Shown one piece after another: positions 47,186 through 63,940 of a DNA stretch of 64,000 nucleotides; within the stretch, counting starts at the first letter, position 1, and every line of letters starts with the position of its first letter. This DNA comes from Psilocybe cubensis. Lineage: Eukaryota. Position numbers and translations under genes: made by a program. Location of the stretch: contig CM039003.1 in assembly GCA_017499595.2 (NCBI GenBank), positions 868,001 to 932,000 on the forward strand, in the 5' to 3' direction. The notes under the pieces were generated by a model that was given only the letters and a program-made list of their open reading frames with translations, had not been told where the DNA came from and did no database searches.

Positions 47186-47709
47186 GCGCGGACTGTCCGC
47201 CAGACTGACCGGCGGACAGTCTGCCGGACTTATAGGCCTTATAGTGAGCGAGCGTGACTGGGTTAGTGACAGCCGTGCACACTGTGCTCGACAGCGATCA
47301 GTGCCCCTCCAACACACTACCGCCCTCCGCCCCCGAGCTGGCCTAGAAGATGTTCACCATTGTTTTGGCTGTATGAAGTTTTGGTATTTATATTACAGAT
47401 TTATTTCTATGGGAGTACATGTGAATGACTGCATTGGGGTAGGAAAAACGCGTAATAAACTTGTTCGCAAGTTGAAGTTGAGCCAGCCAATATCCAAAAA
47501 AGCCACAATGCACCGAAGAAATTCTCACGTGTTTGGGGCAGCAGTGGAATACGCTACGAGCAATGTGCGCACCGTGTAGCGCATCAGGGGGCGGGCTATG
47601 TCCAGGAAGACTTTCATGAGCTCGCGACGTGGCCCGGACGTCACATCATGGTCACAAACACACAAGATACACCTTGAGTCCGGCGGACAGTCCGCCAGAC
47701 TGTCCGCGC
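47186..47709. mobile_element. Putative MITE-like non-autonomous element
   Basis: Imperfect inverted termini built from GGCGGAC(A/T)GTCCGCC palindromes (47186-47230 and 47677-47709), each flanked by an A8-9 run; no coding capacity. Confidence 0.45.
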
Positions 47710-57549: not shown

Positions 57550-58687
57550 TATCAAAAATTCCCTTGTCATGACTCTGGATGTCTTAATGCTTAACTGTTG
57601 TGTAATGTACCCTACGATTGTCTACGTTATTTTAAATGGACTCTTTTTGTTTGACGCTCGTTTAAAGCTTATACCTCGATCCGTGGGCCAAACGTTTACA
57701 TACAATCGCCGGCGGTAAAAACTGAAAATTTTTAACGCCAGTTATGGTTTAATCGACAGGGATTACAACGTGCATCGGTGAATCTGGGTACTTACTACTT
57801 GGTACGCCTGATGCGTCTATACGTTTATGAAACTATGTTTAATAAACATGGTCAAAATTCTATCTTCACGGTAATGACCCAAGGAACACTTCAAAGTTGC
57901 GCTTCAGATTCTTTTGTTCGTTCTGTGGGGATCAATGACGATGCGGTGACTTCATTTTGCTCATCCTTCTTTGTATTCTGGACTCGAGGCAGGTCGATGA
58001 TCATCCTTTTATACTTCCAGCTTGTTGAATTACCTTATTTTCATAAAGACCGCTAACCAGAATTATATACCAACAGGTTCCTCTATTTTCAAAACGGCCT
58101 ACTATGAGGTAAAATAGTAACCTTGTAAGGAGGACAGTGACCTCTCTCCTCTCTCCTGAACGTGAATTTCTCTACATACAACATCCATTATCTGACGGAA
58201 GCCGAAGCCAATCAGACGCCAGGCAGGCAAACGCCGTCGCCCAGGGGGAGAGGGTGGGTTCCGCCATATCTCATATGTATCTTAACCCTCAAATGCAATT
58301 TTTGCGAACAAAAGGAAGATCTGCGATGTGGCAACCCAGCCTCGTGCATGCGCTGTACCGCCTGGCTGGCTGGCTGCATGCTCTCGAAAGTCTTCTGCGC
58401 TTCTGAGGGCCCATCAGAGGCAAGAAGGACAAGGGCCATACTCTTCGCCGCACTGGCACATACATGATACCTCCGCCCCAACAGCAACTCGACGCTCGAC
58501 GCGTATAAGAGGAAAGTGGGGGGACGCACCACCAAGTTTCCCCAGTACCACCACCACTACTAATTCCATTCTCCTCCTCTCTCGAAACGAACACTTCTTC
58601 GCTTTTCCTTCATACACACACACACACACCCGCGTTTATCGCATCTTGTTCTTGTTCTTGTTCTATTAATTTTAGTTTCCCTCCATC

Positions 58688-59502
58688 ATGCAATTCACCA
58701 CCTTCTTTACCGCTCTCCTCGCCGCGACCGCCTCTGTAGTAGCCGCGCCAACGCCAACGCCAACGCCAACGCCACTCAAATCCCCCCAGGAGCTCATCGT
58801 CTTCAACCCCCCTATCACATCGCCCAAGTCGTCTTCCGCATGGGCAAAGGGGTCAGAGCAAATCGTCGAATGGGGTGAGTCCGCTGCTGCTCTTGGTCAG
58901 GACTCACAATTCCCGCCTGCACCACCTGCCTTTCTTCGGCCTCTTTGATTACTTACATATTGATGTGTTTTAATTTAGAAATCACCAATATCCCGGAATC
59001 AAGAGTCAACTCGACTGGTACCATCGTCCTCGGATATTCCGCATCAGAGAACGGCAACGAGCACCTCGACATCGGTATGTCCTCATCCTCAGCCCAGCCA
59101 ACTCACATTTGAATCGCTAATCGCAACAATTATACAAACTAACTTAACACGGTACCATTACAGCGCATCCTCTCGCGACTGATTTCCCAATTAAACAAGG
59201 ATTCATGAAAGTAGTCATGCCAAAGAACATCGCCGAACGGAATGACTACTTCATCGTTCGTAAGTAGCCATTACTCTCCTTCTCCTTCTCCTCCTCCTCC
59301 TTCTCCTTCACCCCCTCTTTTTTACCCTCATTTTTTTACTTCACAAACGCATGACAAACTTGAACTTACATTACCTTTTTTCAAAGTGTTTGGCGATTCT
59401 GTAAGCTCTTGACATTTCTTTTTTCTCCTGATCAATGAAAATCTCATTCGTTGTGAATTTCGGGAATAGGGAAACCGATCCCCAAAGTTCAGGATCCACT
59501 AG
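58688..59502 (+). CDS. Secreted Kre9/Knh1-like protein D
   Basis: Signal peptide, PTPTPT, PPITSP...W|E, IVLGY...EHLDI|AHPLATDF, 14-nt micro-exon 59387-59400 (LFGDS), GNRSPKFRIH*. Confidence 0.82.
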
Positions 59503-59884
59503 TAGGAATGCCGCCACCTTGAGCTACGAGCTTTCGAACCATCCTCTTCGACGATGTACTCAGTACAACTACAAGATGATTGTCGCCGTCCCATGAATCC
59601 ATTTCACGCCGCTAATACACAACGATTCCCAATGTGCCGCTACCGACTTTTTTTATATATAATTGCAAGCTGCTTATGGTTTATTACCATCAGCTATCTC
59701 ATTCACTTACGACTTACGCACCTCATGTACTCTCTCTCATTAACGTTATCATTCGTTACATACAATACTCAATATACGATAATGTCCATCACTCCGAACT
59801 ACTTACTATCGAGTAAAGATTTTGAGAAATTCTACGGTTAAGGAAAATGTGTCAGCTGTATCATCATAAAAAAGTAATGATATT

Positions 59885-59993
59885 CCCCCTCGTATACTCA
59901 ATCAAGAACCCCCACTGGCAGCTCAGTGCTTCAGAATATCCAAAGCACCGGGGGTCTTTCAAGAACGCTATAGCACAAGGGTACCGATAGGGG
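59885..59993 (-). ncRNA. Putative intronic structured RNA, unit 1
   Basis: 5' arm CCCCTATCGGTAC pairs with 3' arm GTAT-A-CGAGGGGG; internal GACCCCCG/TGGGGGTT and GTGCTTTGGA/TCTGAAGCAC stems; inside predicted intron 60028-59832. Confidence 0.5.
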
Positions 59994-60320
59994 CATCTTA
60001 TTACATTAAGATCAACGTACATACATACCATGGATCCAATGGTGTACGAAAGAAGAACCTCAGTTTCTGAAGTGAATCCTGGAAATGCCTCCACACATAC
60101 TCAGATGCCGCTGCGGAACTCGATAGAGCCATGCATACCACTAGTGATGCGTGGCCGCGATAGGGGATCATATCCAACATGCCCAAAGTAACAGCAACAC
60201 CTACTTCGCGTACACCGGGTAATACTGAACCAAGCAAGCAAATACCTAAAAGTATACAGTAAACGTGTTAGCACATCCGCGTCGGTCTCCAAAGGAGATA
60301 TAACCACAAAACAAGATCAA

Positions 60321-60367
60321 GAAAAAAAAGTAAAAGAAAAAAAAAGAAAAAAAGAAAGAAAAAAAAA
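60321..60367. repeat. A-rich tract (U-rich polypyrimidine on the minus strand)
   Basis: Near-pure A/G run between the unit 2 3' arm and the branch point. Confidence 0.7.
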
Positions 60368-60373
60368 CATAGA

Positions 60374-60786
60374 AATCCCCCCGTACACACACTCAAGAAC
60401 CCCCATCAGATGGACCTTCTCCAAAGTATCGCAGCTACCCGCCACACACTCCGTCCTATACCGCTCAACACATGACCATCCTCATCCAGCCTCTCGGTAT
60501 TACTATTAGTAGGAAGGAGACCCGGCCCGGGTCCATGGTATACACGTCATCCAAAGCAGCCCAGCGCAAAGCGCCGTGCCACATCGCGCAATGGGGCAAA
60601 CCAAACCAAAAAAAAAAGTACAATCGGTGCATTCTTTTTTTATGTCCTTGTGTCCGACTGTATTAATTGTAGATGCTTAACACGCCATGTTATAGCATAA
60701 CAACAGCGTGAAAGCTGTTCTCGTCAGAAGCACTGAGAGCTTCAATAACACGTCGAATTACGACGCGTGTGTGCCGATAGGGGATT
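60374..60786 (-). ncRNA. Putative intronic structured RNA, unit 2
   Basis: AATCCCC-TA-TCG-GCACACAC pairs with GTGTGTGT-A-CGG-GGGGATT; inside predicted intron 60850-60246. Confidence 0.5.
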
Positions 60787-61369
60787 GATGTTGAAAAACA
60801 CAAAATTTTGAAGTGGGAAAAGAAAATGAGGTGAAAAAGGTGAAACTCACCTTAAGTTAGAGACAACATAGACAAAGCGCGGCATAGGCGCAACAGGCGT
60901 TCTATCAGAGTGGAGACATGGTCCAACAGTGCCGCCAATGAGTAAACAAGTGAGAGTACGAGGTAAAGTAAAGAGGTGAACCGAACACGAAGCCTTTTTA
61001 AACTCGCTGCCCAAGATTAAAGCTGAGCTTGAAATCGATCACGACAGGAAGTGAAACTGTGAACCATTGAATGACATGTAATTTACGTGCAACTGCGGCA
61101 ATGTGCGCGCGTTGGCAAAGAGTGTTCTATCTACTTATATGTAACGCGACGCACTACTAAATACCGCATATATTCAACATTAGCAGAACGCAGGATGATA
61201 CCATAAGATAAAACTTGAACAAAATCATAACTATATGCGCATTGCGAAACCTAAATCCAACTCGATTAAATCCCTCTCAGAAAAAAATATGTACCGGATT
61301 CAACCCAATGTACACCCATCGGAATTTCTGTATGATTAGTGTCAGTGTCTGAGCTGACCACACCCATAG

Positions 61370-61435
61370 AAAGAAACAAAGAAAGAAATACAGAAAGAAA
61401 CAAAGAAAGAAAGAAAGAAAGAAAGAAAGAAAAAA
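61370..61435. repeat. (AAAG)n-type microsatellite
   Basis: Imperfect AAAG/AAAC run. Confidence 0.85.
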
Positions 61436-61454
61436 CCGCAATGATAATGGCGAT

Positions 61455-61954
61455 GTAACCCCCCTCGTACGTCCCATCACAAATCCTCCAATATCACACA
61501 GAAGAAAAGGCACAGGAAAACGCATACGCAATGACGCATATACACATACGCATACGCATACACACATACGCATACACACATACGCATACACGCAATGACG
61601 CATATACGCATACACATATACGCATACACATATACGCATACGCATACACATATACGCATACAAATCCCACACCCAATCCACCAGTAAACCTGACAAAAGT
61701 CAGGCATACTACCATAAGCAAGTTCCCAACACAAACCAAATCACAATATACCATCGTGTCAAAGCAATTGCAAGTCGGCTTGGTTCAGGAACTGCGGTAC
61801 GCCGCCGACGTAATCATCGAGGCGGTTGGAGGGGTTTTATGATGATCACAGTGCAAGCGATAGATCACAGGAATATATATCCGTGTCATTGTTCGCTTTG
61901 TGCATTGCCACGCCTTTGTAGAAGCTAGGCGCGTGGACGCCGATAGGGGGTTAC
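61455..61954 (-). ncRNA. Putative intronic structured RNA, unit 3
   Basis: GTAACCCCC-TA-TCG-GCGTCC pairs with GGACGT-A-CGA-G-GGGGGTTAC; inside predicted intron 62022-61328. Confidence 0.5.
61521..61662. repeat. Compound (CATACG/CATACA/CATATA)n microsatellite
   Basis: About 140 bp of alternating purine-pyrimidine repeats. Confidence 0.9.
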
Positions 61955-62390
61955 GTCTCGCGCATTGCGCATTGCAGATTGCGGGGTGGGGGGCAGCTGA
62001 CATGAACTTAAGGCGCACTCACCTTCCAGACACACGCTCTTCGGGGCATGAACTTGAGCTTGAGCTTGAGTCTTGGATAGATCATACAAAGCAACGCCTT
62101 GACCAGTTTACGACGAACGGTACATAAAAGTTGGAAGAAGACATATGTAAAGCATGAAGAAAAAACTCAATGGACCCGTGACCGTTAGGTCATGAATATA
62201 GTGACCACCGGAATTAGACGCCGAACCACAATCGCATCTACGCGACTTGCAATTGGGGAAATTATGTTACGCGACAAAACGCGCTGATGATTGTTTGAAG
62301 CATCGCTCACCGAGAATCCAGTTTACAGCTGATATCCCACTGCAATAGATATTCCACAACATACAAAAAAAAAAATAGGTGGTATCCAAC

Positions 62391-63940
62391 TCAAAGCTTC
62401 GCCTTCTCCACCTCCTTCTCCTTCTCCTTCTTCGCCGCCGCCTCAAGCATATCCTTCACCTCCGTCGCCGCCTCCGCCAAATAATGCTTCAACACCCTCC
62501 CATCAACCCTCTCCCCAAACCTCGAATATCCCCCCCTCAAATTCGTAATCGTCCACCTAACATAATCATCCCCAATAGCATACGCAACTCCATACCCATC
62601 CTCCACCACCTCGCCGTACCCCCACCCGCTGAAGTAGGGACTGCTCAGCTGGCTCGTGCTCAGTTCCCAGTGGTTTGATTTGCTGAATGCGCCGTCGGTG
62701 TATAGTGCTGGCACGGGCTCGGTGGGTTGGAGTAGCTTTTTGAGCCCGAAGAGGTGCCGGTCGACGCCGGCGCCGTCAGCGGCCCACGAGGCGTATTGGA
62801 TATGTCGCGCCGCCGCGCGCGTGAACAGAGATTTCAGGTAAACCGGGTCCTACATTCGTATATATAATGTGAATACATGTCCTGTAAACCTGGGAAGAAA
62901 ACACGTACGGTGATTTTAGGATCCAGCATAGCCTCAGCCCACGCTTTACTCTCATTACTCGCGCTGCGGATAACCTCCGTGCGCCCGAGCTGGTACTTGC
63001 GCGTCTGTGCGCTCTCGTACGTCACACCCGGCCGACCGTTCATCTTATGGAACGCGAGCTGCTTGATGAGCTGCGCGGTCGCGTCTGGTGACGTTTTATG
63101 GTGCTTGGTAAAGTTCTTGCCAAAGCCTTCGTAGTGCAACACCTATAGACCAACCATCAACATCAGCAAGTCATGATAAGAAAGAAAGAAGAGAAAAGAA
63201 AAAACACGTACCTGCAGATCATGCTTCCCAACAAGCTCATCAAACCTCTTTTCCGCGCCTTGCACCAGACCCTTAACCTTCTCATCCAACTCAAACACCA
63301 ACTCCTCCACCACGGGCAACTTCTCCCCATCCACCCCCTCCGGACCCAAATCCACCTTCCCCTGCGCAAGCGCCGCAAGCACAAACTCATTCATCCTCAA
63401 CGTCGGCGTCCCATCCATACACGAGTGCTCACCAAGGAACCCCGAGCGCCCATTCTCATACACCACAAGCTGATGCTTATCATACCACCGATTCCTCCCG
63501 TCGCCCACCCAGGTGCCCCAGCTGATGTCTTCGCGCGTGATGGGCTTGCTGTCGTCCAGCGCAAGCACAATCATCGCGCCCTCGATCTTCCTCAGCAGCT
63601 CCGCGTTCCTTCCCGAGGGCGATGCCGCAAGCAGCGCTTGACGCGCGTCGGCCCAGAGGTCGCGGTTGTCAGCGGTCAGCGCGCCGACGGGGTACGCGTA
63701 CGGCGTCTCCCCTGCCCGTGCGATGATATTGTTCAGCTGCGCCTCGAGCTCAGCAGCGGAGAGCTCCGCGCCGGAGGTGTTGGTGAGCGGGACGAGGAAG
63801 AAGCGGTTCTTCCGAAGAACGATGATGTGGTTGTTAGACTTTGCGTCGAATTTGGCGGCGGTGTCGGATGGCTTGACGGGGTATCTGGAGGAGTGGAACA
63901 GCCATTTGTACGAGGCCATGCACAGGGGCGCACCCCGCAC
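62391..63940 (-). CDS. CAT2: Carnitine O-acetyltransferase (Cat2-like), 3' part; 5' end lies beyond the window
   Basis: NRWYDK, catalytic EHSCMDGTP, SPDA, TYESAQTRKYQLGRTEVIRS, GVDRHLFGL, LSTSQL, GYGVAY; C-terminal PTS1 AKL*. Confidence 0.92.

Follow-up and report, generated by a model that had tools for sequence, protein, structure and literature searches.

Paralogous modules with a predicted long-range helix in long introns of a non-coding Psilocybe cubensis locus: a tentative cis-acting role

In yeast introns, folding around cryptic splice sites and stems that draw donor and branch point close to each other are documented (PMC12350175). The zipper stems of Saccharomyces cerevisiae defined there are long-range helices lying between the donor and the branch point of long introns, more than 10 nt from the former and more than 20 nt from the latter, with more than 6 bp, a total linker of 42-85 nt and little conservation of primary sequence. 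Introns of other fungi have been duplicated: PMC3609843 describes introner-like elements, same-gene duplications and low-copy introns as over-long introns with canonical splice signals, stable predicted structure and similarity to one another within a locus, the introner-like elements being near-identical and present in tens to hundreds of copies per genome in unrelated genes. The internally symmetrical introns and stwintrons of the Hypoxylaceae, according to PMC8469720, have also proliferated without target-site duplications; they carry terminal inverted repeats of 45-55 nt that include the intron ends, have nested donors and may give double-stranded intron RNA. Intronic small nucleolar RNAs (snoRNAs) of fungi, as treated in PMC8476143, and two groups of DNA elements, miniature inverted-repeat transposable elements (MITEs) and foldback transposons with imperfect inverted termini around a variable interior, are the remaining neighbours. 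Here we describe a locus of Psilocybe cubensis (assembly GCA_017499595.2, contig CM039003.1, positions 868,001-932,000; these 64,000 nt are referred to below as the window, and all positions are counted from its first letter) which carries, on the minus strand, several modules that we call units, each closed by a predicted long-range helix, P1. None of the systems above fits these modules as a family.

The reading that we favor, tentatively, is that the units are paralogous modules of long introns in which a long-range helix is under selection and acts in cis, by looping out a variable insert and by burying a GUACG that resembles a donor. The evidence consists of the window, public contigs aligned to it, one metagenome scan and the literature. 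The initial annotation, made from the letters of the window, had described three elements (units 1, 2 and 3), and the strings that it quoted are all found on the minus strand where it had placed them. The motif CCCCTATCG occurs four times in the 64 kb, always on the minus strand and within 2 kb (59985-61949; individual copies at 59985-59993, 60158-60166, 60775-60783 and 61941-61949), compared with a shuffle mean of 0.26; none of 100 shuffles reached four. The copy at 60158-60166 (CCCCTATCGC) is a fourth 5' arm that was absent from the initial annotation. The cores of the 3' arms are located at 59886-59895, 60377-60386 and 61461-61470. By itself the 3'-core pattern, allowing at most one mismatch, is not enriched (four found versus 3.48 expected, with 41 of 100 shuffles reaching four), and three of its four matches lie after a 5' arm on the same strand. 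A further string, TGGGGGTTCTTGA, is found without any mismatch in two of the units. The motifs are genuine, and their occurrence is not random.

The copies are confined to this locus as far as the window extends: neither BLAST of the locus nor nhmmer searches with 5'-arm and 3'-module profiles detected another in the remaining 62 kb. Same-orientation copies within 2.2 kb and none in the next 62 kb argue for local duplication rather than independent insertion. The metagenome scan, which used one stringent 21-base pattern of the 3' module against JGI metagenomes, returned two matches, both in high-GC prokaryotic coding DNA; since these are chance matches, the scan is uninformative on fungal relatives. 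A literature search for the motif strings found no publication on these motifs in the library covered, the matches listed being unrelated by title and abstract. On self-comparison of the locus, the alignable segments are the arms, some 30-70 nt before the 3' arm and a U-rich tract after it, while the interiors of the units and the exons cannot be aligned between copies, a distribution that fits constraint on the arms.

Pairing of the arms was assessed with an RNAduplex matrix of the four 5' arms and the three 3' arms, against a background of 3000 random arm pairs with the same spacings from the same window. The arms of unit 3 (-35.7 kcal/mol) and those of unit 2 (-26.9 kcal/mol) each form the best duplex of their row and column, and only 0.2% of the random pairs reach -25 kcal/mol or below. 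The closing stem that the initial annotation had assigned to all three units is thus upheld for units 2 and 3 and not for unit 1, whose own arms give a background-level duplex (-15.8 kcal/mol; -15 kcal/mol is reached by 11% of the random pairs) and a stem probability of 0.01 within the intron, or about 0.1 when folded alone. Among the 5' arms it is the fourth that gives the unit-1 3' arm its most stable duplex (-18.3 kcal/mol), with pair probabilities of 0.68-0.94 that include an outer GAUAU/AUAUC extension. We therefore redefined the third unit as 59880-60173 (about 294 nt), which spans the border between exon 3 and intron 3 of the initial annotation. With the fourth arm included, the permutation that matches all three arm pairs with their cognates ranks first among the six that the matrix allows. 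Folding of the whole 695-nt host intron gives pair probabilities of 0.90-1.00 for P1 of unit 3; the same treatment of unit 2 gives 0.70-0.99 for the outer and inner segments of P1 and 0.08-0.32 for the central UCG/CGG pairs. The three minus-strand duplexes of the original units 1, 2 and 3 (-15.8, -26.9 and -35.7 kcal/mol) are more stable than their plus-strand counterparts (-14.9, -25.0 and -28.9 kcal/mol), and the wobble pairs of the minus strand are A-C mismatches on the plus strand, in agreement with the earlier preference for a minus-strand RNA.

All units share a core that comprises CCCC, a UA/G (or UA/-) loop, three base pairs of UCG with CGR, one bulged A and a G.U pair. The 5' arm (CCCCUAUCG-G...) and the 3' module (UGGRGG...GUACGR-GGGG) that build it are both conserved. 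Around this core the paired sequences differ from unit to unit and stay complementary, as the initial annotation had noted of the flanking base pairs. The outer stem is GUAAC/GUUAC in unit 3, AAU/AUU in unit 2 and GAUAU/AUAUC in the third unit; the inner stem is GCGUCC/GGACGU in unit 3 and GCACACAC/GUGUGUGU in unit 2, and the third unit has none. Arms that still pair, with different sequences, while the rest of the modules has diverged are most simply explained by selection on a minus-strand RNA helix. What the data show directly is the sequences, their clustering beyond chance, the predicted pairing with its unit-specific complementary extensions, and one splice junction; that P1 folds in vivo, that its pairing is selected and that it affects splicing are inferred.

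Unit 3 (61455-61954, minus strand) is a 500-nt module closed by P1. Its 5' arm (GUAACCCCC-UA-UCG-GCGUCC) lies at 61935-61954 and its 3' module at 61455-61491, in which UUGGAGG and UUUGUGAUG are predicted to pair with 61826-61844, and GGACGU-A-CGA-G-GGGGGUUAC with the 5' arm (probabilities 0.65-1.00). Unit 2 (60374-60786, minus strand) is a 413-nt module with the 5' arm AAUCCCC-UA-UCG-GCACACAC at 60767-60786 and the 3' module at 60374-60407; here GAUGGGG is predicted to pair with 60590-60596, GUUCUUG with 60717-60723 and GUGUGUGU...GGGGAUU with the 5' arm. The third unit, also on the minus strand, pairs its 5' arm (60158-60173) with a 3' module at 59880-59913 and encloses the nested extra 5' arm at 59981-59993, which the initial annotation had taken as the 5' arm of unit 1 and for which pairing with the 3' arm is predicted at 0.01. 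The inserts enclosed by P1 are 280-500 nt long and mutually unrelated in sequence. CACGC, which starts a local hairpin just inside the 5' arm, is common to units 2 and 3 and the fourth arm. What remains of the 3' module is predicted to be paired with interior segments in every unit, UGGRGG with a CCYCC stretch; at its R/Y position this helix has an A-U pair in unit 3 and a G-C pair in the other two, the partners being short enough that chance is possible. The predicted folds of units 2 and 3 are multibranched domains and not two hairpins. Folding z-scores are -3.08 for unit 2 and -11.32 for unit 3, the latter largely driven by an imperfect (UGCGUA/UGUGUA)n microsatellite in its interior (61520-61662, minus strand), which accounts for the low folding energy of unit 3 and for sub-threshold matches to microRNA models.

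Conserved imperfect inverted termini around unrelated interiors of very different length could also mark a relic at the level of DNA, namely decayed non-autonomous foldback or terminal-inverted-repeat transposon copies, or a local inverted duplication, later duplicated in tandem, whose arms would owe their complementarity to the DNA repeat and not to selection in RNA. Possible presence/absence differences between haplotypes of one organism point in the same direction: joints in contigs of X4, a DNA-like run, skip 207 nt (59948-60154, which brings the interior of unit 1 next to the fourth 5' arm), 62 nt and 1039 nt. These joints come from an alignment at 90% likeness, are flagged 'between: not known' and may stand for replaced rather than deleted sequence; haplotype differences are a possible explanation of them. 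Against a relic, and setting the modules apart from MITEs, no target-site duplication was seen by eye at any plausible boundary of the three units, the copies disagree in their outermost paired bases, although a transposon is normally conserved best at its tips, similarity runs past the 3' arm into the flank, and all copies have the same orientation within 2.2 kb, the rest of the window containing none and the metagenome matches being at chance level. Neutral decay after local duplication should, moreover, break the pairing rather than keep it with different sequences. We consider such a relic unlikely. As to other mobile elements, no match to long-terminal-repeat features (primer-binding site, polypurine tract) or to Helitron ends was seen by eye, and a literature search on MITEs in introns of Agaricomycetes gave genome reports only.

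A still lower probability attaches to the view that the modules are leftovers of tandem duplication in junk DNA, without function, in which low-complexity runs (C4/G5-6 and CA/TG repeats) mimic pairing. The helix cores are indeed C/G runs, the inner stem of unit 2 is (CA)n/(UG)n, microsatellites abound in the region and its transcription is low. However, duplexes of -26.9 and -35.7 kcal/mol are matched by at most 0.2% of random window pairs, the arms of unit 3 are not of low complexity, and the arms kept their alignability when all other parts of the units lost it.

The splicing of the locus was followed in contigs from runs X1-X3, which are labelled 'RNA?'. Because X1 and X3 contigs skip GT..AG or CT..AC intervals in both neighboring genes, we treated them as transcript assemblies from a related, diverged strain. 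Their cover is absent over the interiors of units 2 and 3 (bins 60211-60813 and 61417-62019), to which we give no weight. Unit 3 is hosted by the predicted GT-AG intron 1 (61328-62022, minus strand, 695 nt) and unit 2 by GT-AG intron 2 (60246-60850, minus strand, 605 nt), and the splice dinucleotides are present at the intron ends that the initial annotation had named. An X1 contig that starts at 60857 has 199 loose letters, of which those closest to the break equal the X4 letters just before the 3' end of intron 2 near 60246; in our reading by eye, the exon upstream of 60851 is joined in the related strain's transcript to the exon that starts at 60245. For intron 1, an X1 contig (61165-61329) stops where a contig spliced from exon 1 to exon 2 would, which is compatible with splicing, and no joint is listed. 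The third intron proposed (59832-60028, minus strand) has splice-like signals and is unsupported, since an X1 contig (59910-60151) runs collinear and unspliced across its donor at 60028. Of the three junctions expected, one is read as joined, one is compatible with the contigs and one is crossed unspliced. The related picture of one RNA per intron does not hold for unit 1: the stem of unit 1 is not favored, its partner arm lies in what had been called exon 3, and donor 60028 is crossed unspliced.

Both host introns are long for this window, in which transcript contigs reveal introns of 59, 60, 69, 89-90 and 104 nt, with a 210-nt contig gap as a probable sixth; the 50-60 nt that had been given as typical is roughly right, the joints seen being 59-104 nt. 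Units 2 and 3 begin 64-68 nt past a GUGAGU donor, and their 3' arms end 127-128 nt before the acceptor, as had been claimed. Between the 3' arm and the branch-site-like sequence lies a U-rich tract, which is (UUUC)n at 61368-61437 before CUGAC in intron 1 and occupies 60304-60372 before CUAAC in intron 2 (both minus strand). The GUACG in the conserved 3' core of units 2 and 3 is identical to the first five letters of the donors in the neighboring acyltransferase gene.

Several observations stand beside these. Both transcript-verified introns of the acyltransferase gene have the donor GTACGT (62903-62908 and 63206-63211, minus strand). The acceptor AG of intron 2 (60245-60246, minus strand) directly precedes GUAUUU, and removal of this intron would recreate AAG|GUAUUU, a weak site of recursive-splice type that lies about 79 nt upstream of the fourth 5' arm; in the related strain, loose ends read by eye suggest that the GU of this GUAUUU is absent.

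On the reading that we favor, local duplication would have given three or four copies in the same orientation within 2.2 kb, after which interiors and exons would have diverged beyond alignment and the arms would have kept pairing with different sequences. P1 would act in cis on the precursor RNA, looping out 410-500 nt of variable sequence, and its formation would make a 600-700 nt intron behave as one of about 170-180 nt. It would also bury the donor-like GUACG, which lies 141-143 nt (one plausible intron length) upstream of the acceptor; splicing would then join the GUGAGU donor upstream to the acceptor that follows P1 by 127-128 nt. Both effects have precedents in yeast, the zipper stem being among the nearest systems (PMC12350175). 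P1 has 18 pairs in each intron and lies 68 and about 113 nt from donor and branch site in intron 1, and 64 and about 106 nt in intron 2, with branch sites located by eye; it thus falls on the zipper side of all three limits on position and length, and it would likewise shorten the intron and cover a donor-like site. Unlike the yeast stems, these paralogs keep a fixed asymmetric core, and one copy lies outside a supported intron. We propose, by analogy, that P1 may work like a zipper stem without being one by definition.

A number of points weigh against this proposal. The linkers left after formation of P1 would be about 181 nt in intron 1 and about 170 nt in intron 2, beyond the 42-85 nt by which zipper stems are defined. 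A purely cis-acting role requires pairing alone and leaves the kept asymmetric core sequence unexplained. The copies number three and are all local paralogs, which puts compensatory change beyond statistical test, and the permutation analysis of the arm pairs has a floor of 1/6. The third unit is outside any supported intron, and the branch sites were assigned by eye with a CTRAY consensus. The donor-side flanks of introns 1 and 2 are similar with z = 4.06 when the GTGAGT hexamer is counted; without it z falls to 2.50 (15 of 1000 shuffles), and unrelated introns reach 2.25, so that homology of the two introns over their whole length, as judged from sequence, is only suggestive.

Compared with duplicated introns of other fungi, introns 1 and 2 resemble introner-like elements, as portrayed in PMC3609843, in being over-long (695 and 605 nt versus joints of 59-104 nt), in their GT-AG ends, in their predicted structure (z = -3.08 and the microsatellite-inflated -11.32) and in their mutual similarity in one locus. 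They differ in that they are by no means near-identical and have only the arms, the 3' module and weak flank similarity in common, with no copy outside the locus within the 64-kb window. The arms also differ from the repeats of the Hypoxylaceae introns and stwintrons (PMC8469720): they are about 20 nt long and internal, at a distance of 64-68 nt from the donor and 127-128 nt from the acceptor.

The conserved core, with the same non-Watson-Crick features in every copy, is better explained if the modules give rise to a stable RNA. According to this alternative, which we regard as doubtful, the introns or a long non-coding RNA are the source of a new class of stable RNA that exonucleases trim to P1, the asymmetric core being a platform for protein binding and the 3' module being functional. 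Terminal stems with a K-turn serve as such a protein-binding platform for snoRNAs. Every unit has a 3' module whose full length is predicted to pair with two or three segments upstream of it, the UGGRGG/CCYCC helix shows the A-U versus G-C difference, the spliced non-coding host with long introns resembles snoRNA host genes, and no known Rfam family is matched. Arguing the other way are sizes that vary between about 294 and 500 nt, interiors of unrelated sequence, a microsatellite among them, the lack of C/D or H/ACA boxes, the presence of the third copy in sequence retained in a transcript contig, and CCYCC partners short enough for chance. The Rfam 15 comparison that the initial annotation had called for gave no match at gathering thresholds in the whole window; its 14 sub-threshold matches all fall on the microsatellite (61517-61664).

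An ordinary snoRNA host gene with overlooked box C/D or H/ACA snoRNAs would likewise be a spliced non-coding transcript with long introns, in which a helix between 5' and 3' sides can define RNA ends. Some intronic C/D snoRNAs are flanked by external stems, and non-coding snoRNA host genes are known. One ACA occurs at the end of unit 3. It is, however, found in one of the three units (61454-61456), where P1 takes up its A and C with a pair probability of 0.99-1.00; the lone sub-threshold snoRNA match, sno_ZL1, scores 25 bits against a cut-off of 64 and lies on the microsatellite. In box C/D RNAs a short terminal stem unites a C box (RUGAUGA) close to the 5' end with a D box (CUGA) close to the 3' end, and upstream of D or D' lies a guide of 10-21 nt that is complementary to rRNA or snRNA. 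A heuristic box C/D scan of 59800-62200 gave no minus-strand candidate and a single one on the plus strand, at chance level, and the arm cores UAUCGG and UACGAG are not box sequences. H/ACA RNAs are characterized by two hairpins, an ANANNA H-box hinge and a single-stranded ACA three nt from the 3' end, an architecture that the units do not show. Scan and fold agree with the earlier remark that terminal C/D boxes are lacking and that ACA follows unit 3 only, this ACA being partly within P1. Size and interior are hypervariable, in contrast to intronic snoRNAs, and a snoRNA host seems very improbable.

The plus-strand candidate (61839-62003), antisense to the 5' region of unit 3, consists of a perfect AUGAUGA, a CUGA about 160 nt downstream and a 6-bp flanking stem. 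Just downstream of the third unit on the minus strand, a perfect AUGAUGA (59862-59867) is followed 5 nt later by CUGA (59853-59856), too close for a snoRNA; this CUGA is probably part of a branch-site-like GCUGAC. Other RNA or protein readings were discarded. ARAGORN reported no tRNA genes, and the microsatellite gives rise, as an artefact, to the sub-threshold Rfam matches to microRNAs (mir-297 and others). Several short open frames run across the arms, but the frame is not common to the copies and one has an in-frame stop; frames rich in Phe, Leu and Ser arise trivially from the U-rich tract, and on these grounds, with no database search, a coding role was rejected. A Pol III or SINE-like origin was judged weak: a run of at least six T follows each unit, but no A or B box was seen by eye.

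The locus itself is a 2.5-kb stretch with no convincing open reading frame, between two convergent genes. It is weakly transcribed, fast-evolving, spliced and non-coding, with its transcript on the minus strand. Upstream of the units, this strand encodes a carnitine/choline O-acyltransferase (PF00755, E = 1.4e-33 and 1.6e-72), and the transcript contigs of that gene end near 62345. The plus-strand neighbor is a highly expressed gene with GT-AG introns that ends near 59784-59858. Within 58029-59858 (plus strand), X1 contig depths reach about 1e5, joints reveal two introns, of about 104 and 89-90 nt, and a third probably accounts for the 210 nt that separate two pieces of a single contig. In the product of the first exon, which has no Pfam match, TP repeats come after a signal-peptide-like N-terminus, and the 3' end of the gene adjoins the third unit. 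Upstream of intron 1, an X1 contig matches 62115-62163 by these 49 nt alone, with loose ends on both sides and an average depth of about 500 in bin 62020-62220; by eye, its loose letters resemble strongly diverged flanking exon-1 sequence, and the first exon of the upstream transcript may be well expressed in the related strain but fast-evolving. Elsewhere in the window, a strong inverted repeat (47186-47230 and 47677-47709) has arms of 19-32 nt that are 81-95% complementary and lie about 450-470 nt apart; made of repeated GGACAGTCCGCC-like words, it looks more transposon- or foldback-like than the intronic modules.

Taken as they stand, the modules resemble a splicing-related fold shared by duplicated long introns more than they do a proven new class of RNA. 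For two of its three units the initial annotation described the feature largely correctly. The 'unrecognised class' of intronic RNA that it put forward, whether as guide RNA, milRNA or RNase III substrate, is hypothetical, the comparison being confined to copies of one 2-kb locus. We would assign a low likelihood to its broader form, an undescribed structured-RNA family of mushroom-type fungi with a protein-recognition helix and a 35-nt 3' strand that zips two or three upstream segments, acting either as a released stable RNA or as a switch of the GUACG donor. Fungi of this kind have mostly very short introns, and how they handle the rare introns of 600-700 nt is poorly understood. If a discrete RNA were released instead, the modules would represent a new family of intron-derived RNA; if the cis-acting helix is real, they would offer a natural experiment on structure-assisted splicing and on the masking of cryptic donors outside budding yeast.

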